Below, in pieces: positions 3,570-49,658 of a stretch of 64,000 bases of DNA. The position numbers and the translations under genes are program-made. The stretch lies in IMG/VR virus record IMGVR_UViG_3300029267_006021, one strand, 5' to 3'. Under the pieces are notes generated by a model, which saw nothing but the letters and a program-made list of their open reading frames with translations, did no database searches and had not been told where the DNA came from. Position 1 is the first letter of the stretch. Each line of letters begins with the position of its first letter. Source of the DNA: a virus.

Positions 3570-4410
3570 CGCCTGTTACCCCAAATAGAGTTCCTAATTG
3601 AGACAAAAGAGCTGCCGGTTGCATGCCCCGATACCATTTACGAACAACAAATTCAAAACTATATGAAAATGAAAAGGGTCGTGTTGCTTCCTCAGTTATT
3701 GTGAAACTTCTAAAGCTTCCAATATAGTTAACAAAATCATAGTATAATCTAACAGAACCAACAGAGTTGATCCTGCGTTTATCATACTGTTTTTCATAGT
3801 TATATCCGTTATTTTTATAGATTAAATATAGGGCCATAAGATTTTGATAAGCAGCACTATTTCTCGCATTTATACGCGTAATTCCGGCTTTGTTATTAAA
3901 CACCTCATTCCCGATATAAAAACCTCCAGTTCTACCACTAATAAGGATGCGATCAAGTTCTTCTCCCCAATGTTCTACAATCCAACCACCTTTTGCATAA
4001 GTTGGCGTTGCTACCTTTTGAGCATTTAAAGTCATATCGGAGGGATTTACTAACAATGTCAAAGGAGGTATATAAGTTCTTTTCTTACCTTGAAAAGCCG
4101 CTTTTACAGTATCTGCAGGAGTTCTAGCGCTTAAAGCCGAAGAAGCATCTCCTGGTAAACCTACAGGAGAATTTGCTGCTCGAGGACCTCTTGGGTTGGG
4201 GTCTGTATCAAAAATGTCGACTGAAAAAATCATTGGTGAAAAATTAGGTCTCGAACTAACAACTGGAAAACCCCCAGGCACCGGAAAAATTTTAGCTTCG
4301 AACTCCTCAGGCATGTGCAAAACAAGAGAGGCATAATTAGCAATTGTGGAAAGCTTAGTTACCTGGCTACCTACAAAATTACCTAATTTCTGAAAAATAG
4401 CATTTGACAT
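3562..4410 (-). CDS. Baseplate / tube-initiator-like virion protein
   Basis: LLVNP...GGWIVEHWGEELD...FSYSFEF; paralogous to 4410-4979; tail operon context. Confidence 0.6.
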   Translation of the reverse strand: MSNAIFQKLGNFVGSQVTKLSTIANYASLVLHMPEEFEAKIFPVPGGFPVVSSRPNFSPMIFSVDIFDTDPNPRGPRAANSPVGLPGDASSALSARTPADTVKAAFQGKKRTYIPPLTLLVNPSDMTLNAQKVATPTYAKGGWIVEHWGEELDRILISGRTGGFYIGNEVFNNKAGITRINARNSAAYQNLMALYLIYKNNGYNYEKQYDKRRINSVGSVRLYYDFVNYIGSFRSFTITEEATRPFSFSYSFEFVVRKWYRGMQPAALLSQLGTLFGVTGGV

Positions 4411-21908: not shown

Positions 21909-22053
21909 CTTTTCATAACCTCGCAATGCTTTACCAACTAAACTACAAAGTTACGAAATCATTAGTAAAATATTATCGCTAAACTGCCGACCCAGAACAT
22001 CTTCTTCTGATGCCTTGAATAATTTGTTTAATTCTTCAAAATTGTCTGGAATC

Positions 22054-28239: not shown

Positions 28240-29130
28240 CTAAGGCTCATAGTCCCGGTTATATCTCCCGGACACCCTCCTGTCTTTAAAATTGCACTCA
28301 TTTTGTTTAGGTCCGAAGACTGCTTTAAAATCTTCCCCAATAGATTTCCAATCTGAAGCAAGGGCTTCTTGATTTGTTCTATTTAAAATGCTATGGACAT
28401 TTGGGTTGTGAAGGCCACCCGAAAGATCAAAAAGCGAACCTATACCTTTAAAGAAATCTCTTATTTTCTGCATTATTTAAATCTCTTAAATTCTAACATT
28501 TATTTTACAAAGATTTAACGTTTTAGCCAATGGAGATGTTCAGAAATCTCGTTTGCTTTAACAATCTTATGTGAACTCATCTCTTCGTATATGTGAGATC
28601 CCCAAACTCTAATAACTTCAACTATACCATCTAGATTAAGCCAAATAGAAAGTTTCTTCTTGTTGAGCCAAACTTCTAAAATTGTTTCTTTTTCCTCAGT
28701 GGTAGAGATGAAGAATTCTAAGTTCTCATCTTTTAAAATTTTCTGTATAATTTCTAACATTGTGAATCTCTGGTATTAGCCAAAATGTTAATGGTCAAAT
28801 CATCGGATAAGTTGTATGTCCAGAATGAATAATTTGAAGACGCAAAGTGATAGAATGCACAGAGCCAAAAGGAAGTACAATAACAACCCCATTGTCTCCT
28901 TCGCGATAACAATCAAATTTAATTTCTTCATCTATTCGAGCAAAATAACTTGCTAAAAAATTCTTAAGTTCTAAAATGAAAGATATATAGAAGGTTGGCT
29001 TCATTAGAAGACCTTCATAGCGATTAAAAAACTCATTAAGATCTTTCTTGAATTTTTCTAAGCCTGCACTTAGAAAAATTTCATAACGAGCTTCAGGTGT
29101 TAAAGGATTTGGATTTTTAAGTGTGTTCAC
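28240..29130 (-). other. Small hypothetical genes
   Basis: ORF track (28240-28473, 28515-28760, 28795-29130). Confidence 0.6.
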
Positions 29131-29287
29131 TGTCCAAATACCTTAAAAAAGCAGTTGCGATTTCTTTCTTTATCAAAAGGTGTGCTTCATGGTCGTTGAA
29201 ATCACCAATACGATGTTTGGTTGCTTCTTATATGATTTCTTGGACTTCTTTTTTGATTTGTTCACGGTTCATGAATGCCCTCCTAAT

Positions 29288-29374
29288 TGGTGGAGGCGGC
29301 GGGAATCGAACTCCCAAGGGCTATTAACCCCGGCTGTTTTCAAGACAGCTGCCTTACCGTTAGACTACACCTCC
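29288..29374 (-). tRNA. tRNA-Ser(UGA), aberrant T-stem, encoded CCA
   Basis: GCTGT-CTTGAAA-ACAGC anticodon arm, long variable arm, ends CCTCCACCA. Confidence 0.85.
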
Positions 29375-29582
29375 GTTTTCAATCTTCTAATAACATGATT
29401 AACGTTTTTAAGACCTTCGTATAAATTATAAGTAGTTCTTATAGCAGGTAAAAGCATACGATTTTCTTTTGCAATCCTGATAATAGGTTCTTGGCCGACT
29501 TCTCGAAGTTGTTCTTTGAAAAAATCAGATTGTTTCTGGTCTTCTGCGTAAAGAACTAAGATTTCCATTATCATCTCCTATC

Positions 29583-29658
29583 TGGTACCGGGGCCGGTCA
29601 CGATCCGGCACTTCTGGCGTATGAAACCAGCGTGCAGAGCCAACTACACCACCCCGGC
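29583..29658 (-). tRNA. tRNA(CAU) (Met or Ile2), atypical T-loop, encoded CCA
   Basis: CTGGT-TTCATAC-GCCAG anticodon arm; T-arm GCCGG-ATCGTGA-CCGGC. Confidence 0.85.
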
Positions 29659-29929
29659 TTATGTTTTGCTCGTTGAAATATTTCGAGTTATTCGATTCAA
29701 CCATAACTGAATACCCGCTTTTTGCATCTCTAACAAATGATGGAGTTCTTTTAACAAATCCTCATAGTCTCTCTTATATGATACGACCAAGATACTCTCG
29801 TCATAACCTAGATGTAAACTGTAACCTTTTACAGCATGATGATTAACAATGTAACCCGCTGTTTCAGTACCTTCTATTGGATAAGGTAGTTTAATGGGTG
29901 TAAGATCAGCGTTCATTAGTACCTCCTAA

Positions 29930-31754: not shown

Positions 31755-32240
31755 TTAAAAATTTGAAAGACCCATTTGACGACGCTCTTCCATTCGCTCT
31801 TCATAATCAGATGGGACATAGTAATCAATTTCCTTGGTTTCTTCTCTATCTATTTTTGTTTCTTCTTCGACCTCCTTAACCCAATTTTTGAAACCTTTGT
31901 CTATACCGTCTAAAATTTCTTCCGCGGATACTAAAATTGTCTCTTTTTCGCCTACAGTGTATATATTCGGATGATCATACGCCTCGAGTGGGTCATCACC
32001 GTAAGTTATTAAAGCATTTGTCCCTTCTTCTGATTCTATTGCTTCTTGAACTTCATCTGAAGTTACTTTTTTGCCTTCTGAAACATAATCGTCTTCCTGA
32101 TAGAGGAAATACCACTGATTGCCTCTTTTTACATATGTATGTGTACAAATAGGAGTATCAATAACAACCCAAGTTGTTTTGATTGGATCAAAATTTGCTA
32201 GCTGTGCAGCAAGTTTTTTAAGTGCCTTGATTGTATTCAT
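31755..32240 (-). CDS. Late acidic protein with LKKLA leader
   Basis: MNTIKALKKLAAQLA...; late-type box at 32276-32288. Confidence 0.65.
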   Translation of the reverse strand: MNTIKALKKLAAQLANFDPIKTTWVVIDTPICTHTYVKRGNQWYFLYQEDDYVSEGKKVTSDEVQEAIESEEGTNALITYGDDPLEAYDHPNIYTVGEKETILVSAEEILDGIDKGFKNWVKEVEEETKIDREETKEIDYYVPSDYEERMEERRQMGLSNF

Positions 32241-32495
32241 TTAGGGACCCTTAAAATTACTCATTTAAAATAAGTATTAATGAATTATTAAAATAAAATC
32301 ATGACTACACAGTTTCTTCTGGACCTATTTCTCTTTGCTCTTGAAAACCGCAATCAAAACATTGAATACCTAAAATCAAACAACCAAAGGATCTTTTGTT
32401 ATCCCTGGTTCCTTTATACTCTCGAAAACGTATTGTGCTAACAAGTTTTGAATTGCATTTTGAACACTTAAACCCTTCTTTCTGTTTGGGCATCT

Positions 32496-32951
32496 TTAAC
32501 TTCCTTTGAAAGGTCGAATTGTTTTTGTTTGAGCGCGTGTTTTCTTCAGGCGTCTGCGTGCTCGAATTTCTTTGCGAATCATCATTAGACGGCCAAGTAT
32601 CTGATTACAAGGAGCACACATCGTTCTGGTGTTATCTAAGTCACGTGAACCCATTTTTGCTTTGGGTTTGATATGGTCAACCGTGAATTCTATTAGTTTC
32701 GCTGTCCAACTATCTACTCCATAGAGAATAAGAACATGGCCTTCATTTTCTTTGTGGTAGTTTAAGGAAAAGTAGGGCGCTTTCAAACCACACAGATGAC
32801 ATTGTGTACCATTCTGCTTGAAAGATCTGAGTCTAAAAGAATTTCCTTTAACCTGTATGTTACCGATTTTAATCCATCTCACAGGGACCTGATCTAAGAT
32901 CTCTTCGATCTCGTGATCTGAAATGTGTACTAGGTATTTTTTCTTGTTCAT
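32496..32951 (-). CDS. HNH endonuclease-like protein
   Basis: CHLCG...FTVDHIKPKAKMG..DLDNTRTMCAPCN. Confidence 0.8.
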   Translation of the reverse strand: MNKKKYLVHISDHEIEEILDQVPVRWIKIGNIQVKGNSFRLRSFKQNGTQCHLCGLKAPYFSLNYHKENEGHVLILYGVDSWTAKLIEFTVDHIKPKAKMGSRDLDNTRTMCAPCNQILGRLMMIRKEIRARRRLKKTRAQTKTIRPFKGS

Positions 32952-32955
32952 ATAA

Positions 32956-33028
32956 CTCGGGAGGAAGGGTTTGAACCTTCAACCTTCCGGGTCAAAGCCG
33001 GACGTTCTGCCAATTGAACTACTCCCGA
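32956..33028 (-). tRNA. tRNA-Gln(UUG)
   Basis: TCCGG-CTTTGAC-CCGGA anticodon arm; U1-A72. Confidence 0.95.
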
Positions 33029-33065
33029 TCATCTTCTTTAGGAATCTCGCGATATTTAAGATTAA

Positions 33066-33222
33066 GTTAGGACACCAGACTTACGCCTCGTCACCTAGGC
33101 AACTTCAAGAGAAGTTTGCTTTTGTTTGTTAGCAACATAAGCTACTAACTCACTCATCTTAACCCCACTTCTTTCAAAGTCAGGTAGCCTTATTCTCTTT
33201 GGGTTAGACGTAAACCCACTAG
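33066..33222 (-). ncRNA. Predicted omegaRNA of TnpB-1 (scaffold overlaps the gene's 3' end; guide about 33066-33085)
   Basis: Conserved at nucleotide level with 38439-38573, including a compensatory stem change; identity ends after TAGGTGACnnGGCGT. Confidence 0.7.
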
Positions 33223-34471
33223 ACAGTCGAGCAATGGCAAATTTGCCATTGCTTCCCTGCTTACTTTTGATTGCTATGTTAGCAGCCCCATTCACATCAG
33301 CATTGATTAGAGTGCCTTTAGAGGTCCCGAACAAACCTCTATGAATACGTTTACCTAGATAAGTAGTGTGTTTCTCTGGGTACTCTTCATCTAAGAAACT
33401 ACACTTGGATGTGTAAGACTCATCTTGAAAAATTAGTTCTAGACCATAGATTTGGCACTTGTGTTTAAGTTTTTGTTTGAAATTGGCGAATGGTATTTGT
33501 ACAAAGTTTTGATTGTTGATCTTACCTAGTTTGATACTTTGTTTGATCTCACTAGACCAGTCACCAATGATGATAGTGCCTATATCCTTTTGAGCACAAT
33601 ACTTGATAATATAGGAGACCATTTGATTTAGATAGTTATTAATTTGATTCTTACGTTGTTGTGTTAGTCTGATTAGTCTTTTTGAACTCTTTTCTAGTTC
33701 AACTCCTTTCTTCTTTAAAGAGTTCTTGTGCTTGATGTAAACAGTCTTTAACTTTGCGGTTTGTTTGTTCCACCATCTGTTGATTGATTTGAGTTCTCGC
33801 CCATCCAGAATAAACGAACGTCCAGATTGGCAATCCAAACAAGTGGCAAAGTTATCAAGACCACAATCTATACTTAAGAGATTTGATTTATCTAAGTTAA
33901 GATTAGTTTTTGATTCGTCATGTTCGTAAGTGATCGCTAGTTCAAAGTATTGAGCGTTGTTGTGTTGAATTATAGCTACTTGTTTGATTTTGCCTTTAAA
34001 TTGTTTTTTAAATGAAATCTTGATCTTGTAGTTAGTTTTTAGGTTATTTTCTCTACAGACTTGTTTTGATGGGTGAAAATAGAAATAAGTATCTGTAAAA
34101 TTGAAACTCTTCGGTGACAGATAGATATGATAATAACCATCTTTTGGAAGATAATGTGGCATTTTGACTTTACAGTGATAGTCACCTGATTTTTGTTTCT
34201 TCTTTAAAGCGAAGAATGATCTAAAAGCCCAATCTATTCGAAGTTGGATGTGTGCTGCAACATCTGATTTCATCCTTTGTGTTTCTGGTAGTTGTTTTAC
34301 TAAATTATGGCGAGCGTACATACCTAAGAACTCACCATTATTAAAGAAATGTTGTCGCGTTATATAAAGAACTGAATTATAAAAATTTTTAGAATCTTTA
34401 CACATTTGTTTAAGAAATAGATAGTCCTGTTTTGATAATTTCCTAATCTGAATTTTTTGTGTAAGTATCAT
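33095..34471 (-). CDS. tnpB: TnpB RNA-guided endonuclease (TnpB-1)
   Basis: RuvC-I SIDCGLDN; IIIGD with relocated Glu in QDESYTSK; RuvC-III NADVNGAANI; no tnpA nearby. Confidence 0.92.
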   Translation of the reverse strand: MILTQKIQIRKLSKQDYLFLKQMCKDSKNFYNSVLYITRQHFFNNGEFLGMYARHNLVKQLPETQRMKSDVAAHIQLRIDWAFRSFFALKKKQKSGDYHCKVKMPHYLPKDGYYHIYLSPKSFNFTDTYFYFHPSKQVCRENNLKTNYKIKISFKKQFKGKIKQVAIIQHNNAQYFELAITYEHDESKTNLNLDKSNLLSIDCGLDNFATCLDCQSGRSFILDGRELKSINRWWNKQTAKLKTVYIKHKNSLKKKGVELEKSSKRLIRLTQQRKNQINNYLNQMVSYIIKYCAQKDIGTIIIGDWSSEIKQSIKLGKINNQNFVQIPFANFKQKLKHKCQIYGLELIFQDESYTSKCSFLDEEYPEKHTTYLGKRIHRGLFGTSKGTLINADVNGAANIAIKSKQGSNGKFAIARLSSGFTSNPKRIRLPDFERSGVKMSELVAYVANKQKQTSLEVA

Positions 34472-34504
34472 ATCGATTATAATCGATAATTAGTAGAGTA
34501 TTAA

Positions 34505-34577
34505 TGCTCCAGGAGGGATTCGAACCCTCTTCTTCGGATCGAAAGTCCGAGATTTTATCCGATTAAACTACTGGAGC
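34505..34577 (-). tRNA. tRNA-Glu(UUC)
   Basis: TCGGA-CTTTCGA-TCCGA anticodon arm; GCTCCAG acceptor. Confidence 0.93.
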
Positions 34578-34579
34578 AT

Positions 34580-34936
34580 TCATAAAAATGGCTCCTCATC
34601 ATCTAACTCTTCTATTTGTATTCCGCCTTCTCTTAACCATTTGGCAACTATGTGTCTGTGACAAAATTTATCCTTACCTTCATAACACAACAAAATAGCA
34701 TCATTTCCTAGATCTTTAAGTACTTTTGTCGGCACAAAATTACGTTTTTTTATACATTCTAAATAGAGTTTTGTATACTCTTGTTCATTAATTTTACCTG
34801 ATTTTAGATCTTTGACTAACTGCATTGGTGGCCCAAGAAGAGGATAGTACTTACCTTTAAACCATTTTGGTTTTCCAGAAGTAATCGCGACTGCATTTGG
34901 ATTATTTTTACTTTTAGCGAAGTATGATGTTTTCAT
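34580..34936 (-). CDS. DUF488-like protein
   Basis: MKTSYFA...LGP...AILLCYEGKDKFCHRHIVAKWL. Confidence 0.8.
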   Translation of the reverse strand: MKTSYFAKSKNNPNAVAITSGKPKWFKGKYYPLLGPPMQLVKDLKSGKINEQEYTKLYLECIKKRNFVPTKVLKDLGNDAILLCYEGKDKFCHRHIVAKWLREGGIQIEELDDEEPFL

Positions 34937-35193
34937 TTGATCTCGATTTCTACGACTCTTTTAATTGCTTTAATTTCTAATTCTTCAGCCCGAAAAACAC
35001 GGTAATTTTCTAGCGTCCGGCTCTTGTCTTGCTCTAAACGATTTTTAATCCATCTGGAAGCAGCCTCTACATCCCCAAATTCTTTGATACCTTCACCATC
35101 ATCATCCGCATAACCATCTGAATAATGAAGCAGGATGGTACTCATTTTATTTCCTTAAAAAGATGTTGATTATACAATTATTATTTTTACATT

Positions 35194-35225
35194 AAACAAG
35201 ACCAGTAAACAAACTGGTCTTGTTT
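35194..35225. terminator. AAACAAGACCAG/CTGGTCTTGTTT hairpin
   Basis: 12-bp perfect stem downstream of a late operon; repeat of the 31430 hairpin. Confidence 0.75.
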
Positions 35226-35242
35226 GAATTTTATGTTATTAT

Positions 35243-35671
35243 TTAGAGTAGTGAATCCGAAATGATTTGCAATTTGTCTATAATATCTTGAGCGCCTTCC
35301 TTCGGATGGATAAACCACTCTCCCGATTTAAGTTTAGCGATGAGATCAGTTAAAGTTATATTTTTGGTGTTATCGTTCATGTCAGCAAACTCTATCTCTA
35401 TACTCTCACCATTGTCAGTATATCCATAAGCATCTGTATCAAAATGAGCAAAATATCCAGATTCGTAAATAGCCTGATTTGGATCACCCTCCTCTTTTAA
35501 CGCTTCTTGAAAATCGAGATCCTCAAATGTGCCTTTATCAACAAAACTTATGCCTGCAGGAGAACCGATTAGTTCTGCCAGATCGTTAATTAAGTCTGCT
35601 TTTTTTAGTATTTTAAGATCGTTAGCTAACTTTTTGAGTTGCTCTACGTCTGCTTTTCTGATTGGGTTCAT
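35243..35671 (-). CDS. Late acidic protein with LKKLA leader
   Basis: MNPIRKADVEQLKKLANDLKILKKA... Confidence 0.65.
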   Translation of the reverse strand: MNPIRKADVEQLKKLANDLKILKKADLINDLAELIGSPAGISFVDKGTFEDLDFQEALKEEGDPNQAIYESGYFAHFDTDAYGYTDNGESIEIEFADMNDNTKNITLTDLIAKLKSGEWFIHPKEGAQDIIDKLQIISDSLL

Positions 35672-35689
35672 TTTTTTTCTCCAAACTAA

Positions 35690-36505
35690 CTACTCATGGG
35701 GACTTTCAGTAAAAATTTCTGATTCGCGTTCTTTATTAAAAGTTATTATTGGTAAACTTAATTCTGATCTACGTATCTTATTAATCTCTCGAGATAAATT
35801 AGGAGAAACTTTATCCCAAAAATCTGCAGGTGTTTTAGCATTAAACTTTGCATTTAATGCTTCCCAACTAGTCTCCTCCATATTAATATACTCAAGTAAA
35901 GTCTCTTTATTATGATGCACCAAGCCTAAAACCCTATCAATTGCCGAGATCTTTGCGTCTAAATTTGAACCAAGCAGTTTGGGCTTATTTTGTTTAAACA
36001 TATCCCAGGATCTTTTCCATTGTCCTTTATTTTGTTGACCTCTAAAAAAAGGCTTTACATCATCTCTCTTATCCAAAACTTCATATAATTCATCGATTTC
36101 ACTAAACGAAAGATCCAAACTATTCAAATCCAAATCACCACAACCTACAAATTTACTAAGGTCAACATCTTCGGGTTGTTCATAAAGAGGCTTTTCAGAA
36201 TTATAGAGCCTAACTCCAGCTTCTTTGTAGAGTTTTTGGTATAATGAAACACTGCCCCCTAGATCTTCCCAATACTCTAAACTTGGAACTCCATCTCCAC
36301 CTATAAAAGATCTAACTGGATGATGTTGAAAAGTATATAAAAAAACGTCATAAATCTTAAGTGCAAAAGAATTAATTTCAGGCTCGAAGTATTCTTGTGT
36401 AAGGCTGCCTGAGATGGCATAAAAATCATAGATATCCTGATTGGTAATTTTCCCACTAGACACCAAAAGATTCGCTAAACGATAAAGAAGAGAAATTGTT
36501 TTCAT
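35690..36505 (-). CDS. Late hypothetical protein
   Basis: Likely start MKTISLLYRLANLL at 36505. Confidence 0.6.
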   Translation of the reverse strand: MKTISLLYRLANLLVSSGKITNQDIYDFYAISGSLTQEYFEPEINSFALKIYDVFLYTFQHHPVRSFIGGDGVPSLEYWEDLGGSVSLYQKLYKEAGVRLYNSEKPLYEQPEDVDLSKFVGCGDLDLNSLDLSFSEIDELYEVLDKRDDVKPFFRGQQNKGQWKRSWDMFKQNKPKLLGSNLDAKISAIDRVLGLVHHNKETLLEYINMEETSWEALNAKFNAKTPADFWDKVSPNLSREINKIRRSELSLPIITFNKERESEIFTESPHE

Positions 36506-36518
36506 TTTCCCTTCCAAA

Positions 36519-36683
36519 CTATCTTAAGCGGCGTCCAAGACCCCTACCCTGGCCAAGACCTCTCCCATAACCATAACCCCGACCTGGACCATAACTAGGG
36601 CCTCTCCTTCTAACGCATGGGCCTAAACCACGTCCTGTTCCTGGGCCTGTTCCTCGCGGGCCTGTACGATCTCTTGCTGGCAT
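36519..36683 (-). CDS. Small Gly/Arg-rich DUF5320-like protein (54 aa)
   Basis: Missed by the ORF track: MPARDRTGPRGTGPGTGRGLGPCVRRRGPSYGPGRGYGYGRGLGQGRGLGRRLR; AGGAGG SD; late-type box at 36718. Confidence 0.8.
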   Translation of the reverse strand: MPARDRTGPRGTGPGTGRGLGPCVRRRGPSYGPGRGYGYGRGLGQGRGLGRRLR

Positions 36684-36726
36684 TTTGACCTCCTATTTAA
36701 GTGTTTAATAAAAGATTATTAGTAAA

Positions 36727-36863
36727 TTATAGAATGAAAGGTATTTCTAAGTTTTGTTTTGCTTTCTCTAAAGCTTGGTCTAGATTCTTTGATTTCCAGG
36801 GCATTGTATTGCCGAAAGCCTCTCTTAACTTTGATTTTATAAACTTTTCGTTTTCATGAGGTT
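36727..36863 (-). pseudogene. Probable orphaned C-terminus of the 38557-40554 endonuclease
   Basis: Frame PHENEKFIKSKLREAFG...LEIPFIL* with no in-frame start behind the nearby SD; joins in frame to VVRYD across the TnpB-2 cassette. Confidence 0.55.
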
Positions 36864-36953
36864 TTGAACCTCTTGTGAGTCTCCTTGGTATCCTTAACCT
36901 TTGTCATTGAATTCTCCTCCAAAAATAGGAAACATTACAAAACTAACTTTTCT

Positions 36954-37082
36954 ATTATACAAAATGAATACTTAAAAGTTTATTTATTTATCACTTTTTT
37001 ATTAATTAAGACGGGCTTCAGAAATTTCTAAGATCTGGAAATTAGTTTCTACTTTAATTATACAAAATGAATACTAAAAGTT
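36954..37082 (-). repeat. Direct repeat ATTATACAAAATGAATACT(T)AAAAGTT x2, read as tandem sigma70-like promoters
   Basis: Copies at 36954 and 37057; each reads TGTATAAT on the minus strand. Confidence 0.7.
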
Positions 37083-37151
37083 AATATAATTAACGTTCTA
37101 ATAATTTACTAATTGGTTCTTATTTATGAATTAATAAAAGAGATAAAAATA

Positions 37152-38564
37152 ATGTATCTTGCACTTAAATCACAGATCAGAAAACTTAGTAAACAAGACT
37201 ACCTCATCATCAAACAAATGTGTAGAGATTCAAAAGATCTCTACAACAAATCTTTATACGAAGTCAGACAACACTTCTTTAAAACAAGTGGTCATCTCAC
37301 CTACTTCTCAAGATACAAACAGATGAAAAATCTTTCGTCTGTTAAGAGAATGAAGTCAGACTTTAGCATGCATGTACAACAAAGAGTTGATTTTGCCTTC
37401 AAATCATTCCTTGCTCTTGATAAAATGGCAAGAAATGGTGAGTATGATAAGGAAAAAGTAAATATACCACACTATCTACCCAAAGATGGTTATTATAACT
37501 TGTTTATGTCTCCGAAAAGTATTGGTTTTGATAGTGAGTATTTCTATTTTCACCCTACAAGTTATATCTGTAAAGATCTTCTATTGTCTCAGAAATACAA
37601 GATCAAAATACCTTTCACCAAAAAAATAGAAGGTATAATCAAAGAAGTTCAGATCATACCTAAAAATAATGCTCGTTACTTCGAACTCTTAATCACCTAT
37701 GAATATGATGAATCTAAAACTAATCTTAAACTAAATAAAGATAATCTTCTAAGTATCGATCTTGGGCTAGATAACCTTGCCACTTGTCTTGATCTACAGT
37801 CTGGGCGATCATTTATTCTGGATGGTCGAAAACTCAAATCACTTAACAGATGGTGGAACAAAGAGGTGGCAAGGTTAAGAGGCATCTATGAAAAACAAAA
37901 GAATAGTCAAAAGAAGAAAGGAGAGAAAGTTCAGAAAAGTTCTAAACAACTTGATCGGTTGAGTAAGTGGAGAAAGGGCCAGATAGGTAATGCTCTCAAC
38001 CAAATGGTGGCTCATGTTATCAAGTACTGTGCAAGTCATAACATAGGTACTATTGTCATAGGTGACTGGAAAGGCATTAAAGATGGTATTCAGATGAGAC
38101 ATGAAACTAAACAAAACTTTGTCCAGTTACCCTACAACTTGTTCAAACAGAAACTCTACTCCAAATGTCAAATGTTTGGACTTGGCTGTGAGTTTCAAGA
38201 AGAGAGTTATACTTCTAAGTGTAGCTTTCTTGAGCAAGAAAAGATCTGTAAACACAAGAAATATATGGGCAAGAGAATTTATAGAGGCTTGTTCAGAACC
38301 TCTAAAGGCATTCACATCAACTCAGATGTGAATGGTGCAGGTAACATAGGTGTCAAGTTCTTGTTAAATCAAAAACAAAGTCAAGATCTAAAACAACGTA
38401 TGCGAGGAGATCGGGTCATTGATCCGATTGAACTGAGTAGTGGGCTTGCGCTTAGCCCAAAGAGAATAAGGCTACCTGACTTTGAAAAGAGCCAGGTTAA
38501 GATGAGTGAGTTAGTGGCTTTGGTTGCTAATGAACAAAAGCAAACTTCTCTTGAAGTTACTTAG
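37152..38564 (+). CDS. tnpB: TnpB RNA-guided endonuclease (TnpB-2)
   Basis: SIDLGLDN, IVIGD, QEESYTSK, NSDVNGAGNI; clear paralog of TnpB-1; the only long plus-strand gene; ATG at 37152. Confidence 0.92.
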   Translation: MYLALKSQIRKLSKQDYLIIKQMCRDSKDLYNKSLYEVRQHFFKTSGHLTYFSRYKQMKNLSSVKRMKSDFSMHVQQRVDFAFKSFLALDKMARNGEYDKEKVNIPHYLPKDGYYNLFMSPKSIGFDSEYFYFHPTSYICKDLLLSQKYKIKIPFTKKIEGIIKEVQIIPKNNARYFELLITYEYDESKTNLKLNKDNLLSIDLGLDNLATCLDLQSGRSFILDGRKLKSLNRWWNKEVARLRGIYEKQKNSQKKKGEKVQKSSKQLDRLSKWRKGQIGNALNQMVAHVIKYCASHNIGTIVIGDWKGIKDGIQMRHETKQNFVQLPYNLFKQKLYSKCQMFGLGCEFQEESYTSKCSFLEQEKICKHKKYMGKRIYRGLFRTSKGIHINSDVNGAGNIGVKFLLNQKQSQDLKQRMRGDRVIDPIELSSGLALSPKRIRLPDFEKSQVKMSELVALVANEQKQTSLEVT

Positions 38565-38593
38565 GTGACATGGCGTCATATCTAACAACTAAA
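38439..38593 (+). ncRNA. Predicted omegaRNA of TnpB-2 (guide about 38574-38593)
   Basis: Hairpins TGGGCT/AGCCCA, TTAGTGGC/GTTGCTAA and AACTTC/GAAGTT shared with the TnpB-1 copy. Confidence 0.7.
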
Positions 38594-40554
38594 AAGAAGT
38601 AATCTCCATTGATTGCCAATTCTCTTTTAAGATAGTCTCTTTTCTGTGCCTCTTTAAAATGAATAATGTTTTTATGTATGTGATTTGGGAAGACAAAATG
38701 GTGATAGCCGTGATACTCTACAATTAAATTTAATGTTTGAAGATAACCATCATACAGAAACTTGCGACCTGTTTCTGGATTTCGAATTTCATTAAAAGAT
38801 TTTTCCTCTTTATAGGGCTGTCCAGTTATTTTAGAGATTAGTTCGAGGATCTGATGTTGTGTGACAAGATAACGTTTAGGTTTCAAACCTAAATGCTCCA
38901 TTTCCCTTCTAATAATTGGGCAGCAGAGGTTTAAACCTTTAATTGCCTTCGGAACGAAAACATCTCCCTTCTCATCGAGATAGGGCTTGAAATCTTCAAG
39001 ATTGAGGGTGATTAGTTTACTTGGAGGTCCTACCCAATTAGGGTCTGATTTCGTTTCAATTATTTTTTGAGTTCTCTTATATATGCGTAGATCATCAAAT
39101 TTAGTTAAACCCTTGCACCAGGAAGTTTGGCCTTGACGACCTTTAGAGGTTTTCTCTATGCGTGGATCAGTCTCTTTTGTTAATCCTTTAGACCAGCCAC
39201 CACTTTTCTTTTGTTTCTTTCGTATTTTAGATGAGACAAAATAAGAACCAGGGAACATTTTGCAGTAGTCTATTGTGGACATTTTATGTGTTTTAGTGAT
39301 ATGTGTGGCTAAGAATTGGCTTTTAAAATTACAATCGGATAGTTTACAATAGAGGTTACCATCTTTATCTTCCTCTCTAGAAATGCAATCATAACAAATG
39401 TTACCTAAAAGAAAATTTGGATCTTTTTGTTCTTGGCAAATAATGCAAAAATTAGCCTCTTCACATAAAATCTGTTGATCTGCTCTACGTTGTTTCACCT
39501 CCTCTAAACGATGATCAATTATTGCACAATTAGGCAGCTTTCGTTCGATATAGTGTTTAGAATGGTACAGAGATTCATAATCTTCTGTGGTTAAATTATG
39601 GTTGAAGCGTAGGTGATCTTTAAGATTGTTTTTCGTTCTAAATGGAAATCCTGATTTAGTTGTACATCCTGGAACCTTGCATTCTACATAATCTATGCCT
39701 TCTTTTTTATCTTTCCATTCTGCAAGATATTCCTCTTTAGCTATTACTTTTTTGCACTGTGAGCATAATAAAAAATGCTGAGTAGATGATTGATAAAGAG
39801 AAATCTCAAAAGACTTCTGACATCTTTCGCAAATGCCAGTCTTTGTTTTATCGTAGAAATCTGGGGGTCTGGAAGCACTGTCCTTCTGTATAGACTCTAT
39901 GCGTTTTTCTTCCGTTTTTATAGCGATTGTTGGCGAATTATACTTAGAGGTGTAGTCTGAAATTGATATCTTGTGTACACTGGGTAAGTGGCGTCGTAGA
40001 GTCGTCATTCGGTATTCCGAAAAGTGCTTGCCTTCCCTCTTGCATATCTGACACTCTACATAGTCTATGTTAATGCGTTTATCTTCCCATTTCTTAGATT
40101 CTTCTTGATTAAAATAATCTAAATGGGCTTGATCATTCTTTTTAAAAGCCATTCTTTTGATATGATTTGTGAGACCCTTAACATCTCGCACTCTAAGATT
40201 ACATACTGGGCAGAATATCTGTTCTTGTGATTTGTAATCTCTCTTTGATTTACATTTTGGGCATAGAACTTGTTTGAATCTTTTCATCTGAGATAAAGCA
40301 GATACAGTAGTAGAGAAAGTTTGATTACAGATCTGGCAGATGGTTGTTGTTTGTTTAGATGTTTTTTTCTTGCTGTGTTTCTTTCTCCTGGCATCTACAT
40401 CTTCCTTTGGGTATTCTTTTTTAAAGAGAGATGTGACTACACTTATTTCGAGATCAAATTGTTCGGCTACTTTTCCTGCTGAGAGATCTGAGCGAAATAA
40501 ATCTTTGATCGTCTGGTATTCTTCTTTGGTGAGACGGTTAATTGAGTAGCGCAT
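38557..40554 (-). CDS. Multi-zinc-finger protein with C-terminal PD-(D/E)XK/Vsr-like endonuclease, C-terminally truncated
   Basis: Repeated DYVECxxC...H fingers, WSKGLTKETD, FLYDGY...LIVEYHGYHH...RDYLKRELA; last codons (AMSPK) lie in the TnpB-2 end; promoter at 40572-40600. Confidence 0.8.
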   Translation of the reverse strand: MRYSINRLTKEEYQTIKDLFRSDLSAGKVAEQFDLEISVVTSLFKKEYPKEDVDARRKKHSKKKTSKQTTTICQICNQTFSTTVSALSQMKRFKQVLCPKCKSKRDYKSQEQIFCPVCNLRVRDVKGLTNHIKRMAFKKNDQAHLDYFNQEESKKWEDKRINIDYVECQICKREGKHFSEYRMTTLRRHLPSVHKISISDYTSKYNSPTIAIKTEEKRIESIQKDSASRPPDFYDKTKTGICERCQKSFEISLYQSSTQHFLLCSQCKKVIAKEEYLAEWKDKKEGIDYVECKVPGCTTKSGFPFRTKNNLKDHLRFNHNLTTEDYESLYHSKHYIERKLPNCAIIDHRLEEVKQRRADQQILCEEANFCIICQEQKDPNFLLGNICYDCISREEDKDGNLYCKLSDCNFKSQFLATHITKTHKMSTIDYCKMFPGSYFVSSKIRKKQKKSGGWSKGLTKETDPRIEKTSKGRQGQTSWCKGLTKFDDLRIYKRTQKIIETKSDPNWVGPPSKLITLNLEDFKPYLDEKGDVFVPKAIKGLNLCCPIIRREMEHLGLKPKRYLVTQHQILELISKITGQPYKEEKSFNEIRNPETGRKFLYDGYLQTLNLIVEYHGYHHFVFPNHIHKNIIHFKEAQKRDYLKRELAINGDYFFLVVRYDAMSPK

Positions 40555-40670
40555 GTTGACTCCTAATTTAAATTATACAAGAAGCAGTCGACGGGATCAA
40601 GGGATTTGTTAGGTTCAGCGGTTCTAGAGGCGGTTAGCGGAGCTGAACTGAAGAAAATTAGCTCAAAAAA

Positions 40671-40704
40671 ATAAAGGTTTAAATTAAAGAATTTAAACCT
40701 TTAT
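40671..40704. terminator. Hairpin after the sheath gene
   Basis: ATAAAGGTTTAAATT-AAAG-AATTTAAACCTTTAT; T-run follows on the minus strand. Confidence 0.75.
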
Positions 40705-40738
40705 TTAATATCTTTTAATTTTATTTAGTTCAGGTTCA

Positions 40739-43504
40739 CTATAATTTAGTTCTTAGTTGGAACTGACAAATGATCCATAAAAGAGGAAATACTGGCTGAT
40801 AAAAAGCCTCGACATTACATATCGTAGGATCACTCGCATCCACCTCGGCACTCACCCCCTTGTAATCACTTATAATCTCAGCCTGAACAAGCATCTTTAA
40901 TGTATTTGCGAGAGCTGTCTCAACATCACCTAAAACACTACTCAGGAATTTCACACCAATAAATCTCTGCAAGTTAAATCTTGCAACCTGCTGTACATAA
41001 TCAGCAATTGCTGTAACTGATGGAGTCCTCGTTAACACATTGTCTATCTTTGTCGTAAGTGATTGTCTGATAACTAAATTCGGATCGAGATCTTCGACCA
41101 CTGTCAAACCAGAAATGGCTGTCTGGTTCTGCTCAACAGAATCAAGTTGTCTTGTTAGTCTCTTAAACCCAAGCAGATACTTATTGGTCATTGGGGTTGC
41201 TACATCATACTGTGGAGATACATTTAAGCCAGCAAATGCAGCAGACATAAATGTACTATCAATCGCATACTCTTGTTCAGATCCATATTCATCAATTAAA
41301 CCAATTACTGCTCCATCTGGATAGATACCCCACATTCTTGAAGAATTGGTATTACGAGCAATTACTTGAGCCTCATTAGGAGTTGTTCCTAGCGAAAATC
41401 CAAAGAGGCCCACTCGCTCTGCTCTATAACGAATAGAACTCATCTGCTCAACATGAGCCTTCAGAGCAACACGAACTGAATCATCTGTGGTCAAGGGTAA
41501 TACGAAGTTCGGAAGATAAATTCTTTGTATAGGTTTTTCTAAATTTGTTAATGCGGTTATATAACTGGCTGGTGCTGCCTGGTTCTCACCAGTCTCTTTA
41601 AGAACTTGACAAAGGCCTAAAGCGATTGCACCATTCTGGAAGGCAAGATAAGCGGCGAGAGTCAATTCATTTGTTGTACTAAGGGGCCCAAAATCAGCTT
41701 CTACATCCTTAAATCGAGTGTAAATCTTACAAGAGTAATCTGTTTTAGCGTATTCATAAGTTACATAATAAAAATCACCGATACCAGGTTCATTGCCCGA
41801 TTTGTCGTAAGTACAAATTGTTGCAGTGTCTCCCACATTTATACCAGTCGTATTTATAACAATTGTCCAGAGTCCTGGAATCGACAAAATCGGTTGATTG
41901 CTTGTTGTGTGATTTGCGACTGTCTGGAATTGTAAGGTGTCACCTGTCTGATAAGTAACAGTGGAACCCTGTCTTATTGTAAATCTAACCCCAGTCGTTC
42001 CATCAATATAAGTCTTTTCCAACTCTCCTGTTCCTGAAGACCCACTTGGAGCAAGAGATGAAGTTACGCTATAAGTCGTAGACGAAGTAAAGGTTACTGT
42101 AACTATTTCTAAAGGAGAATATCCAGGTATTGTCTGTAAATCTGGGAATGATGTTGGGATTGCGCCAAGACCTGTTGGCCAAATGATGCCTTCTGTTGCG
42201 AAGTCTGGATCTGTAACATGATCTTGAGAACTGTTGTGGCGTAAGTAATAAACTGCCCCATTATCACGGCTTGTAATTTTATATGTACCAACGCCTGTAA
42301 CTCCTGGTGTAATTACTTCTAAATAATAGCAATCATCTGCCAAAATGTTATAGAAATAAGTTGCATAAACTTTATGCCCTACTGCTGGGGCATCTTTTGT
42401 CCAAACCTTTTTGGCGCTACCATCAAGCTTTTTGACTGTTACTTCACCAGCATTAAAAGCATTAACTGCGCTCGTACCAACAAATACTTTTATTTTGGAA
42501 GTATCATCAGTTACTAAATCTCTACCGCCTCCGTCAACAGGTTCGCGTGAAAGCGTAAATTCTTTAGTGCTTCCATCTCCCACACCCACTGGGTCCATAT
42601 AAACTACATTGTCAATTAAAGTGCGAGAGACTTGTGTGTCATCAAAATATTCATAACCTGGCGTATGTGTTCCAGCGCTAATAACAGCGGCTGCCCCCCA
42701 CTGTATTGTATCGTCTACAAGAACAAAATCTGTATCTTCAATAAAATCTGTTGAATCTGGAGAATAGCCCACTCTAATTATATCCGTGACATTTTTGTTG
42801 AATAAATCATCTCCAGTATCTTGATATCTATTATAGTAGTAGGTAACGAGTACTGTGGCGCCCGCTGCCGGAGCAGAACTCAATTGAAATGTTCCAGATG
42901 TACCTGCGATCGAACTAGGTGTAACTGTACTTCCATTAACCTTTACTGTAATATCTGCGACCGAATTTGTTATAATTCCACCACCTGTTCCATCAACAAT
43001 TGGTACATAATTTGTTTTAAAAACCTTGTTCGTTCCATCAGCCTGAGATGAAAGATCTTCATCTGCTATCTGAGTATCTGTTCTATTATAATAATAAGTT
43101 ATAAGAACGGTTGCGTCTGCTGCAGGTATTGAATCTAAATAAACAACTCCTGTAGCCCCCTGAACTGCTGAAACCCCAACAGGCTCATTATCTACAAGAA
43201 CAGTTACATCTCTTGGGTTTGTAGTAGTTTGTCCTTGTCCTGAACCTGTTACAATTGGAAAATTAGCAACAGTAAAACTTCGATTTGTTCCATCTAACTG
43301 GCTAGAAACATCTTCCTTTGAAATCAAATTATCAGCAATAGAAGAAGAGCCTCTAAAGAGTTCGTCAGTTGCTTCAAGAGTCTCTTTTCCAACACCAATA
43401 AATGCCGGGAATCTAATGCCCCCAGTAAAACTCGGCACAGTTTGATCAGTAAGGGTTCTAGTATATGGACCTGGAGGCACGTATGATGTAAAAGGACCGA
43501 CCAC
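40739..43504 (-). CDS. Tail sheath protein with inserted repeated beta domains
   Basis: N-terminal YVPPGPYTRT; C-terminal sheath fold (HVEQMSS..RAER, IRQSLTT, YQPVFPLLWI); late-type box at 43564. Confidence 0.9.
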   Translation of the reverse strand: MVGPFTSYVPPGPYTRTLTDQTVPSFTGGIRFPAFIGVGKETLEATDELFRGSSSIADNLISKEDVSSQLDGTNRSFTVANFPIVTGSGQGQTTTNPRDVTVLVDNEPVGVSAVQGATGVVYLDSIPAADATVLITYYYNRTDTQIADEDLSSQADGTNKVFKTNYVPIVDGTGGGIITNSVADITVKVNGSTVTPSSIAGTSGTFQLSSAPAAGATVLVTYYYNRYQDTGDDLFNKNVTDIIRVGYSPDSTDFIEDTDFVLVDDTIQWGAAAVISAGTHTPGYEYFDDTQVSRTLIDNVVYMDPVGVGDGSTKEFTLSREPVDGGGRDLVTDDTSKIKVFVGTSAVNAFNAGEVTVKKLDGSAKKVWTKDAPAVGHKVYATYFYNILADDCYYLEVITPGVTGVGTYKITSRDNGAVYYLRHNSSQDHVTDPDFATEGIIWPTGLGAIPTSFPDLQTIPGYSPLEIVTVTFTSSTTYSVTSSLAPSGSSGTGELEKTYIDGTTGVRFTIRQGSTVTYQTGDTLQFQTVANHTTSNQPILSIPGLWTIVINTTGINVGDTATICTYDKSGNEPGIGDFYYVTYEYAKTDYSCKIYTRFKDVEADFGPLSTTNELTLAAYLAFQNGAIALGLCQVLKETGENQAAPASYITALTNLEKPIQRIYLPNFVLPLTTDDSVRVALKAHVEQMSSIRYRAERVGLFGFSLGTTPNEAQVIARNTNSSRMWGIYPDGAVIGLIDEYGSEQEYAIDSTFMSAAFAGLNVSPQYDVATPMTNKYLLGFKRLTRQLDSVEQNQTAISGLTVVEDLDPNLVIRQSLTTKIDNVLTRTPSVTAIADYVQQVARFNLQRFIGVKFLSSVLGDVETALANTLKMLVQAEIISDYKGVSAEVDASDPTICNVEAFYQPVFPLLWIICQFQLRTKL

Positions 43505-43572
43505 TTTATGACCTCCTATCTTTATTTACTCAGATTATCACAAACTTCTAATCAGTACAACAAATTAGTAGA

Positions 43573-44034
43573 TTATTTTGAATCATCGAATTGTGATAAA
43601 CCTTGGGCTTCTCTTTTTTTGCGGTGTTCTGACAAAGCTTCTCGATATTCACCTAACATTGTTTTGCGTTTAGACACAACACGATCATCCGCTGGAACAT
43701 ATTCCATCTCCCCTGGATTTCCTGAGGGTAATCTTCTTAAACGTTTTTCTTTAGTTGACTCCCGATATTTTTCTTTTTCTTTTTGTCTTTGTTCAAAAAT
43801 AGGTCGGATCTTTTTATCGACTGTTTCACCAACTCGTCTATCTAACTCTTTTTGAGAGTAGGTTATATCAGAGCTATAGGGAGAACTATCTTTCACAATT
43901 GGAGGAGCAATTTGGGAAATTACTCTATTACAAGATTTTCCACAAATTGGGCACTCATGCGAACTAACATGCACTGGAACTAACCGTTCAAATAAAGCTT
44001 GACAAGATGCACATTTAAATTCGTAAAGTGGCAT
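43573..44034 (-). CDS. FmdB-family zinc-ribbon protein
   Basis: MPLYEFKCASCQ...CPICG...RVIS; AGGAG SD before the ATG at 44034. Confidence 0.85.
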   Translation of the reverse strand: MPLYEFKCASCQALFERLVPVHVSSHECPICGKSCNRVISQIAPPIVKDSSPYSSDITYSQKELDRRVGETVDKKIRPIFEQRQKEKEKYRESTKEKRLRRLPSGNPGEMEYVPADDRVVSKRKTMLGEYREALSEHRKKREAQGLSQFDDSK

Positions 44035-48279: not shown

Positions 48280-48329
48280 TTAATAGACTCCTATAAATAA
48301 CTTAAAAACCAACTAATTAGTAGAGTATT

Positions 48330-49658
48330 TTAGTATTCGATGTTCTCAAAAGTAATTGTTCTGCCTTTTATTTCTCTCTTATCTGGAATTTCTGGTTTAT
48401 CAGTTATAACTGGACTATCGCTTGTTGTACCAGGAGGTTCTCGAGTATTATCGACTTCTGGAATTGGTCCCTCTATTGTAGCTTCTGGATATACTGGAAC
48501 CTTATAACGGGCATCTCTTGTGTCAATATATTGCACTTCAAAATGTTGTTGAAAAATCGCCCCATGAGCCCCTTCTGGTGTGATTGCTCCTACTGCATAT
48601 CTTTCGCCATTTGCTCGAATTATAAAATCTCTTTGAGAAAGTAAAGGAGATGGGCCAGTCCAAGTAGAAAAGGAAAAATTAAGCCTCATACCAGTTTCTG
48701 CAATTTCTTTATTTCGGGGAGCCTCTGGAGAAGCGATAATTATATCAAAAGGCCCAGAATAACCTCCTACATAGCCTGTCCCATAACAAATAGGACAATC
48801 ATGATAACTTCTCTTATGGGTATCCGACCAATCAGGACAACGAGTTCCCATCCATTTTCTAATAAATACTTTTACCCTTTCTCCCCCTTGTTGTAATATC
48901 CATCTATTGCGACGGATAGCTTCTCGCCACATCCAATTAATACGTTCAACTTGTTGAAATGTTTCACCTTCTACCTGATTAAGTGGGGTTTCAACTATTT
49001 CTCCCGTATCTTTACGTGTGCCTATGGTTGTAACTTTATAAAAAATTCGATTATCAATGCGTAATGGAACACTATTTGTATTATAACGATAAGTACATAA
49101 GACTCTGCTTGCTGAATTATTAAAATCAGGCAAACGAGCAGTTATAGTTTTTCTTGTTGCATGATCATAATAACCTGAAGTAATTAAAAACACCTCACCT
49201 GTTGAACCGATAACTCTATAAATCGGAGTTTCAACAAGTTCTCCGTCACCCTTATCTATCTTTACAACAATATCCTTTGTATCACTAGCGTATGATAATT
49301 GTGGAGAATCCTTGACTATTGGTCGATGCATTGTCTTAAAAATATATTCATTTCGTTCATTATCTCCTCGGCTTATAAAATTATTCGTTACATCCTCATC
49401 AACAATTAATTCATTCGTCACACGATCTCTATAGGTTAGAGTTCCAATAGGAGTTTCAGTTAAAAGTTTATAAGGCCCGAATTCACTATTTGGTGATTTA
49501 TAAACATTGACACCCGTTATATCAAAATTAGCATTATCTGGATCATCAACAGGATTATCAAAACGAATGTCTAAAGCACCATCAACAAAAGGATGTACAC
49601 AGAAAACATTACGAGGACCATTCGGATATAAATTATTTGTTTTGGAAGTTATAGACAT
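48330..49658 (-). CDS. Putative neck / head-closure protein
   Basis: FN3-like N-terminus; GGERVKVFIRKWMGTRC...CPICYGTGYVGGY pattern of myovirus neck proteins. Confidence 0.55.
   Translation of the reverse strand: MSITSKTNNLYPNGPRNVFCVHPFVDGALDIRFDNPVDDPDNANFDITGVNVYKSPNSEFGPYKLLTETPIGTLTYRDRVTNELIVDEDVTNNFISRGDNERNEYIFKTMHRPIVKDSPQLSYASDTKDIVVKIDKGDGELVETPIYRVIGSTGEVFLITSGYYDHATRKTITARLPDFNNSASRVLCTYRYNTNSVPLRIDNRIFYKVTTIGTRKDTGEIVETPLNQVEGETFQQVERINWMWREAIRRNRWILQQGGERVKVFIRKWMGTRCPDWSDTHKRSYHDCPICYGTGYVGGYSGPFDIIIASPEAPRNKEIAETGMRLNFSFSTWTGPSPLLSQRDFIIRANGERYAVGAITPEGAHGAIFQQHFEVQYIDTRDARYKVPVYPEATIEGPIPEVDNTREPPGTTSDSPVITDKPEIPDKREIKGRTITFENIEY

Follow-up and report, generated by a model that had tools for sequence, protein, structure and literature searches.

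What has become of a phage gene whose reading frame runs for 665 codons and then stops abruptly inside the end of a tnpB gene that reads in the opposite direction? The question is raised by a 64,000-nt stretch of viral DNA (IMG/VR record IMGVR_UViG_3300029267_006021; this whole stretch is referred to below as the window), in which a gene for a zinc-finger nuclease meets the gene for a TnpB protein, TnpB-2, between positions 36727 and 40554. Cas12 descends from TnpB, whose natural role is known chiefly from bacterial IS605 and IS607 elements in which TnpA is encoded as well; the nesting of mobile elements is common. A transposase-less cassette of tnpB and omegaRNA has split the phage nuclease gene, and we consider it probable that its ribonucleoprotein (RNP) would home between co-infecting phages.

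A tnpB cassette splits a phage nuclease gene

The 665-codon nuclease open reading frame (ORF) lies on the minus strand (38557-40554) and terminates ...DYFFLVVRYD, followed by AMSPK and TAA. The abrupt VVRYD-AMSPK ending inside the TnpB-2 end, which a first-pass annotation of this DNA had pointed out, was reproduced, with the ORF end at 38557. The AMSPK and TAA codons are the reverse complement of the bases just beyond the tnpB-2 stop codon, and the nuclease and tnpB-2 ORFs overlap tail to tail by 8 nt. When positions 36864-38573 (1710 bp) were removed in silico, ...ATGAGGTT met CGTCATATCT... and an ORF of 705 aa resulted, which runs ...VVRYDEPHENEKFIKSKLREAFG...LEIPFIL* through a frame at 36727-36863 that otherwise has no start; the rejoined protein proposed in the same annotation was therefore recovered.

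The locus can be read as a gene in two parts. Codons 1-660 and the first base of codon 661 occupy 38574-40554 on the minus strand and encode a helix-turn-helix (HTH)-like N-terminal region, several zinc fingers of the Ros/MucR and C2H2 types, a pair of GLTK(E/F)(T/D)D..RI repeats and a Vsr/DUF559-like domain. The orphan tail (36727-36863, minus strand) holds the last two bases of codon 661, 44 further codons and the stop codon, and encodes the last helix of the fold and a C-terminal extension. The aberrant end of the 665-codon ORF (38557-38573, minus strand) is taken from the right end of the cassette, which supplies the second and third bases of codon 661 (here GCC, Ala), MSPK and TAA. The cassette itself (36864-38573, plus strand, 1710 bp) comprises a left arm, tnpB and the omegaRNA scaffold, with boundaries drawn from coding constraint and homologues; it has no tnpA inside and no target-site duplication. 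It entered a gene of 705 codons in antisense orientation, right after the first base of codon 661; its length is an exact multiple of three, and zero host bases were removed.

Coding logic supports the placement of the junction to the base, because the junction codon G|AA restores the Glu of the family consensus D-E-P while shifted boundaries give K or A, which are never found there. Shifting the boundary by +1, +2, +3, -1 or -2 gave DK, EK, AK or DA, and neither K nor A occurs at those positions in 43 homologues. Junction shifts from -3 to +5 nt either yielded residues never seen in the family or deleted host-homologous codons, as did a 'CG core' model (1728 bp), and a 1713-bp deletion lost one residue at a point where no homologue shows a gap.

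Intact relatives continue through the break. Using the C-terminal 186 residues as the query in a collection of 5.8 billion proteins, we found P0002, an intact protein of exactly 705 aa from two JGI metagenomes, which, apart from the protein of the window itself, is the one relative of comparable length and ends ...LVIRFDDPYEDEAFIRANLKETFGNTIPW...IEIPFLI. In a tblastn comparison, P0002 residues 5-660 aligned to window positions 40551-38575 (65% identity) and residues 656-705 to positions 36879-36730 (52% identity, E 1.6e-13). The agreement far exceeds chance. The P0002 locus aligns to the rejoined window DNA gap-free over the join, past the stop codon and into the same downstream DUF5320 gene (36519-36683 in the window, where it follows the nuclease tail and encodes a glycine-rich product of 54 aa). 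An exhaustive HMMER search with the domain returned 1007 relatives at E<=0.001 and 74 at E<=1e-10. Alignments to the truncated query halted at the D or A of RYDA, and the rejoined C-terminus added 13-16 residues; the consensus R-x-D-E-P-[YFW]-x-D-x-x-Y-L-R-x-R-L crosses the break in P0002 and 42 more distant homologues. The first-pass annotation had expected homologues to show RYDEP and the following helix: the consensus does run through the break in all 43, and the helix is present in an AlphaFold (AF2) model described below. Its left junction, which had been chosen to restore the frame, is now backed independently by the G|AA consensus, P0002 and the 42 homologues, and its proposal that a TnpB/omegaRNA cassette splits the endonuclease gene is borne out by an intact 705-aa P0002 that is collinear across the junction.

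The exact truncated protein was present on 8 contigs (ENA and Logan assemblies, several runs), so the insertion is not an assembly artefact. Datasets with this phage include the assembly ERZ27256778 and the runs SRR14699969 and SRR6963311. Since the 5.8 billion proteins also contained no intact allele, the disrupted form, the only one seen for this phage, is the one in circulation. Two Logan contigs that carry the truncated nuclease (L006 and L007) end ~105 nt into the tnpB-2 3' end, at window ~38460, probably because the omegaRNA scaffold is nearly identical in a second cassette of the window, TnpB-1, and branches the assembly graph.

The interrupted gene encodes a Vsr-like nuclease

The N-terminal two-thirds of the nuclease gave weak C2H2 and Ros-MucR zinc-finger matches in Pfam, and in its relatives the Ros/MucR and HTH domains are clear. 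Pfam has no match for the C-terminal domain itself; DUF559 matches two of its 43 relatives, and a PHROG annotated 'homing endonuclease' matches P0002. An AF2 model of P0002 residues 520-705, built from the 43-sequence alignment, reached a pLDDT of 89.8. Its structural matches were Vsr (1cw0, Z 9.7; 1vsr, Z 9.2), the catalytic domain of I-Bth0305I (3r3p, Z 9.5) and a DUF559-like protein (3hrl, Z 8.6), all covering model residues ~43-165 and ending at 162-165. Foldseek probabilities were 0.98-0.99, yet the E-values were 0.03-0.05. On this model the C-terminal domain is predicted to be a Vsr/DUF559-like member of the PD-(D/E)xK superfamily, i.e. an I-Bth0305I-like endonuclease.

The junction corresponds to model residue 142, past the last strand and ahead of a helix at 147-158 (pLDDT >90), so the insertion removes the last helix of the core fold and a poorly ordered extension. 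In total 45 C-terminal residues are lost, with AMSPK in their place. The D, E, G, H, D and K that are invariant among the 43 homologues all lie upstream of the break and are retained in the 665-aa product, where the catalytic motif reads YDGY...VEYHGYHH...RDYLK. By comparison with the characterised enzymes, the catalytic acidic and His residues appear to be conserved; the literal EDxHD motif is not present.

The nuclease gene lies immediately downstream of a tail-sheath gene in the window (40739-43504, encoding a 921-aa product that matches a tail-sheath PHROG) and in two distant phage lineages (L030, L031, L032 and L033), whose sheath proteins are 44-48% identical to that of the window. Fold, modular architecture and phage location would all fit a homing endonuclease. 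The tail-sheath synteny is equally compatible with an old free-standing nuclease at a recombination boundary and with a vertically inherited phage gene. Of the label 'homing-type nuclease' in the first-pass annotation, the structural part stands, given the Vsr/EDxHD fold and the PHROG match, but mobility is not established for a gene that neighbours the tail-sheath gene in each of three divergent phages.

A second multi-zinc-finger protein of the same phage is encoded by a 726-aa ORF (61662-63842, minus strand). By tblastn it shows ~25-27% identity to the interrupted nuclease family in the zinc-finger region only, with the nuclease domain unmatched.

TnpB-2 belongs to a phage clade

The tnpB-2 ORF (37152-38564, plus strand) encodes 470 aa from its ATG and was listed from an upstream TTG at 37113. 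TnpB-2 scored above the Pfam cut-offs for OrfB_IS605 (RuvC; 62.8 bits against 30.5) and Cas12f1-like_TNB (29.0 against 26.3), and TnpB-1 likewise exceeded both gathering scores. RuvC catalytic residues were assigned by motif (SIDLG, ESYTSK, NSDVNG), and the resulting D203, E351 and D392 are invariant in an alignment of 18 phage, archaeal and cyanobacterial TnpBs. A phmmer search of the PDB with TnpB-2 gave no match; only a profile matched distant Cas12f/TnpB-like structures, including the RuvC region of 8j3r. Judged from these residues and domains, TnpB-2 looks catalytically intact.

TnpB-2 and six close relatives (58-68% identity to TnpB-2), TnpB-1 among them, form a clade, the next relatives being ~41% identical, and all clade members with usable context lie in phage-like contigs. 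The phage-clade copies examined, and two more distant homologues, have no adjacent tnpA, the window as a whole not having been screened for one. The neighbours of TnpBs of 40-41% identity in Haloarcula and Nodularia include no TnpA, and the TnpA type therefore cannot be inferred from these relatives. The window itself is phage DNA, with ORFs almost all on the minus strand and eight tRNA genes, and a ~194-kb metagenomic contig carries the same sequence. A megablast search of GenBank phages with 36000-41000 gave no match, and an IMG/VR search found no relatives of the nuclease and none of TnpB-2.

TnpB-1 (33095-34471, minus strand) is 60% identical to TnpB-2 and lies between tRNA-Glu and tRNA-Gln (32956-34578). 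Only ~33 nt, made up of a promoter-like motif and a palindrome, separate the tRNA 3' end from the TnpB-1 ATG, and its right end reads ...GGTGACGAGG, then CGT. In a related phage contig of 113 kb (L010; ENA ERZ27256770) a tRNA with anticodon CTA (3894-3968) directly precedes a TnpB cassette; this amber-reading tRNA was labelled Pyl by ARAGORN and may be a suppressor tRNA.

Another contig (L011, compared over 1-1701) carries a TnpB cassette where window positions 29100-29720 have a tRNA-containing segment. In the window this segment (minus strand) consists of tRNA-Met, a 69-aa ORF, tRNA-Ser and a short ORF MNREQIKKEVQEII, after which come an in-frame TAA and EATKHRIGDFNDHEAHLL.... We considered L011 as a second split gene and rejected it, as in the window both of its flanks belong to separate genes, with tRNAs in between. 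The comparison suggests that TnpB cassettes may replace segments in the tRNA region.

The omegaRNA scaffold and its guide

Over the last ~135 nt of the tnpB ORFs and 9-16 nt past their stop codons, DNA conservation is far above that of the rest. In the TnpB-2 cassette the scaffold occupies at least 38441-38573 (plus strand), overlaps the tnpB 3' end and terminates ...AGGUGACAUGG. A consensus fold of the scaffolds of five cassettes contains 45 pairs, six of them with compensatory changes, and includes a terminal stem at the right end; the single-sequence z-score is -2.9. No Rfam family matches it. This conserved 3' structure is the predicted omegaRNA scaffold, as expected for a TnpB gene.

In seven independent cassettes conservation ends with ...AGGTGAYNWGG (one has GA), after which the flanks are unrelated. 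The bases right after ...GG are, however, CG in all seven and CGT in six; in TnpB-2 this CGT is at 38574-38576, which coding logic gives to host codons 660/661. The CGT might reflect a preferred target, stem from microhomology during insertion or belong to the scaffold.

Since the scaffold ends at the junction, the guide is predicted to be the antisense strand of the nuclease gene. The putative guide region (38574-38593, plus strand) is the right-end flank and is antisense to nuclease codons 654-661, with a start that may lie at 38577, i.e. 3 nt later than first proposed, because CGT follows ...GG in six of the seven cassettes. The window has a single copy of the 20-mer CGTCATATCTAACAACTAAA, which lies on the plus strand (38574-38593) and runs antisense to the nuclease gene. 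Whether the guide begins CGTCATATC... or CATATC..., the predicted sequence has this antisense orientation and no second copy in the window. Of the guide in the first-pass annotation, its identity as a unique antisense 20-mer holds, but conservation of CG or CGT makes its exact start uncertain by 3 nt. When we looked for natural targets of the guides of other cassettes among the fetched loci, we found noise only, except for the pair formed by L011 and the window.

An atypical left arm and a shared promoter-like motif

The left arm of the cassette (36864-37151, plus strand, 288 nt) is atypical. It contains a 23-nt direct repeat (36954-36976 and 37057-37079, 103 bp apart) and a 31-nt segment (37067-37097) that is an inverted 81% match to the host flank at 36827-36857, 6-37 nt from the junction; this match scores above all 635 control windows. 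The arm has a weaker collinear similarity to the whole nuclease tail (p ~0.012), and a small palindrome, the inverted repeat GAGGTT-TTG-AACCTC, lies over the left junction. Its minus strand carries a GGAGG Shine-Dalgarno sequence and an ATG (36907) that opens a 17-codon mini-ORF, which crosses the junction out of frame with the tail.

Upstream, five aligned cassettes have only TAATAMTYTACTAAT in common, after which four of them carry a short palindrome that reaches the ATG. In the TnpB-2 cassette the motif is TAATAATTTACTAAT (37099-37113, plus strand), upstream of tnpB-2, and it is common to TnpB-1 and to cassettes in other phage contigs. The window contains 14 copies of the form (T/A)AATA(A/C)T(C/T)TACTAAT where 1.6 would be expected, most of them directly in front of minus-strand genes (e.g. 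43564-43578, 48316-48330, 36718-36732 and 21961-21975, all minus strand); the copy at 36718-36732 lies just past the stop codon of the nuclease tail, ahead of the DUF5320 gene. This excess and this placement make the shared element promoter-like and not the left end of an insertion sequence (IS), so we rejected the motif as a conserved left end of the cassettes; the recurring sequence is probably a phage promoter class. The TnpB-2 insertion reaches 235 nt further left than the motif. The view of the cassette as a minimal IS is consequently not established, its shared 'left end' being a phage promoter-like motif and its left arm 288 nt of atypical sequence; these features argue against a minimal IS pasted in by a standard transposase.

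How the cassette entered and how it would spread

The left flank reads ...TCATGAGGTT|, and the one empty site that could be reconstructed is ...TGAGGTT|CGTC.... Two nt from the junction the flank contains TGAGG (36857-36861, plus strand), which is like the (C/T)GAGG termini at the right ends of the cassettes. In IS607-type elements the target-adjacent motif (TAM), TGGG, and the scaffold end, UCGG, are alike and have a common GG core (PMC10690162). TnpB homing at empty sites and the G-rich TAMs of IS607-type TnpB are described in the same work, and by analogy TGAGG is a possible G-rich, IS607-like TAM or target candidate. GG is present at 36860-61 in the left flank and at 38572-73 at the right end. 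A mismatched-core event, which has been observed experimentally (PMC10690162), would fit TT on the left and GG on the right, although this is speculation. Entry at this site was probably not textbook IS605/IS607 transposition.

By analogy with established TnpB biology, TnpB-2 would be expected to cut an intact allele and hence to home. In the mechanism that we propose, tnpB-2 would be transcribed from the phage promoter-like motif during infection, and the guide would be the 16-20 nt next to the scaffold, on the nuclease gene's antisense strand. The TnpB-2 RNP would leave the genome that encodes it uncut, as the guide match there stands behind the scaffold end. An uninterrupted gene in a co-infecting relative would be cut next to ...TGAGGTT, if that sequence is the TAM, and repair off the cassette-bearing genome would copy the cassette into the cut relative.

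Several findings weigh against this reading. An uninterrupted allele of this phage was looked for and not found, which leaves both the junction and any ongoing mobility without direct proof. The search for intact relatives among the 5.8 billion proteins returned P0002 alone, and a 22-mer from the left flank was absent from JGI metagenome contigs. The first-pass annotation had proposed looking for the empty-site sequence in other genomes; the two 18-mer matches in IMG/VR (L003 and L004) are chance, as both are unrelated PAPS-reductase-like genes that happen to encode GLRYDEPHR, and we rejected them as empty alleles. The conserved CG(T) suggests that the scaffold or right end may reach 2-3 nt into bases that coding logic assigns to the host, and between L011 and the window homology resumes exactly, and only, after the cassette's CGT. 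The left arm has no relatives in any fetched locus and contains inverted copies of host-like sequence, neither of which simple cut-and-paste explains. A clean IS607 GG-core model was rejected, since a 1712-bp unit puts the conserved tail out of frame while coding needs 1710. We could derive no TAM consensus, because the other cassettes gave no definable left boundary. Finally, the zinc-finger CxxC pairs of TnpB are reduced in the TnpB-2 clade.

Some of the same observations can be explained in other ways. The cassette, together with ~230-290 nt of left-hand DNA that is foreign or rearranged, might have been joined into a break in the nuclease gene by an illegitimate or microhomology-mediated event during phage recombination, in which case there would be no homing and the guide match would be merely positional. 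In favour of such a capture, there is no tnpA and no recognisable IS left end, the cassettes share upstream only a phage promoter motif, and the unique left arm has an outward-facing Shine-Dalgarno sequence and ATG like the start of a divergent neighbouring gene, such as the one beside the closest relative in L008. The inverted repeat GAGGTT-TTG-AACCTC at the left junction and the inverted 81% match of 37067-97 to the flank point the same way, the CGT could be 3-nt microhomology between cassette end and target, and the related L011 cassette replaces a tRNA-containing segment with no clean insertion. However, TnpB-2 and its scaffold show no decay, no host bases were lost, the added length is an exact multiple of three, and the TGAGG next to the junction resembles the cassette termini, a hint of site choice. 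We therefore regard a capture of this kind as possible rather than probable. Ordinary IS200/IS605- or IS607-family transposition, with TnpA provided in trans by the host or another element and TnpB acting only in restorative homing, would account for the TnpB family and omegaRNA architecture, for the lack of a target duplication and for right ends that finish in GG with a TGAGG flank, comparable to the TGGG TAM and UCGG end of the IS607 type (PMC10690162). We think it unlikely, as a GG-core crossover unit of 1712 bp is out of frame with the conserved tail, the copies have in common no subterminal hairpin or left end beyond the promoter motif, and no tnpA adjoins the phage-clade copies examined or the two distant homologues, in a window not screened as a whole.

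The ORF call alone would make the 665-aa ORF and the 44-codon frame separate genes, with a natural end near RYD or a chimeric assembly between them. This is hardly credible: P0002 and the 42 other homologues continue past the junction with DEP..D..YLR.RL, the AF2 model and its structure matches include the missing helix, and the same junction is found on 8 contigs from independent assemblies.

The reading that we prefer, a split nuclease gene with a cassette that would home, can be extended to the clade, although we do so only tentatively and the extension may well prove wrong. Phage-specific tnpB/omegaRNA cassettes that lack a transposase, have phage promoter motifs in front of them and are often neighbours of tRNA genes might be RNA-guided free-standing homing endonucleases that move between co-infecting phages; one of them would have knocked out a resident, protein-only (Vsr-like) nuclease gene of this genome and would drive that knock-out. 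If this is true, an RNA-guided and a protein-guided selfish nuclease are in direct competition; if the cassette merely landed here and is inert, the locus is an ordinary nested insertion. Phage-borne tnpB is already known, e.g. in cyanophage A-1(L) (bioRxiv 10.64898/2026.02.14.705889). What this case adds is a phage-adapted clade without TnpA, its promoter wiring and a native target inside another nuclease gene that can be reconstructed precisely. The cassette offers a testable system for TnpB homing between co-infecting phages, with a natural TAM/guide pair, a compact enzyme of 470 aa and a defined native target.

Comparison with known systems

The cassette is like the TnpB systems of IS200/IS605 and IS607 elements (e.g. 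ISDra2 TnpB and CboIStron TnpB, PMC10690162) in its OrfB_IS605 and TNB domains and RuvC D-E-D residues. As in those elements, a structured RNA extends over the 3' end of the gene to the element boundary, the flank would be the guide, and there is no target duplication. The right end finishes in GG and a G-rich motif lies at the left junction, as in the IS607 type. An IS200/IS605 (Y1 TnpA) transposon would have subterminal hairpins at both ends, an insertion site 3' of a short A/T-rich motif and a tnpA in the element or in trans; here a terminal stem is present at the right end, the flank is GAGGTT, no shared left end beyond the promoter motif was found and the cassette has no tnpA, in an incompletely screened window. 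In contrast to these families, no tnpA is found in or beside the phage-clade members, and a promoter-like motif stands in front of tnpB where no left end can be recognised. The TnpB-2 copy also differs in its 288-nt left arm with host-like inverted copies and in the CG(T) conserved past its end. Its scaffold is without an Rfam match, and the protein only distantly matches solved TnpB/Cas12f structures. IStrons, which combine a group I intron with tnpB, are similar in that a tnpB-bearing insertion lies within a protein-coding gene. We rejected an IStron reading, as Rfam found no group I intron in 32000-41000 and the cassette is antisense to the nuclease gene; because of this orientation, splicing cannot rescue the nuclease mRNA.

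The interrupted protein has the same fold as I-Bth0305I, Vsr and DUF559 proteins (Z ~9-10), with the pattern D...E-x-H-G-x-x-H...D-x-x-K, and like them is fused to modular DNA-binding domains in a phage. It differs in its marginal sequence similarity (DUF559 in two of 43 relatives), its Ros/MucR-type zinc-finger N-terminus and its tail-sheath synteny.

T4-like phages carry free-standing homing endonuclease genes, Seg and Mob, with SegB in a tRNA region, and these home between co-infecting phages (PMC13565253). In the window, too, nuclease genes lie between conserved phage genes and behind phage promoters (here promoter-like motifs), and TnpB-1, like segB, lies between two tRNA genes. The spread proposed here would also be the same, by cutting a co-infecting relative and being copied in repair. 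Unlike the Seg and Mob enzymes, the TnpB nuclease would be RNA-guided, and would tell self from non-self by whether or not the guide match adjoins a cassette.

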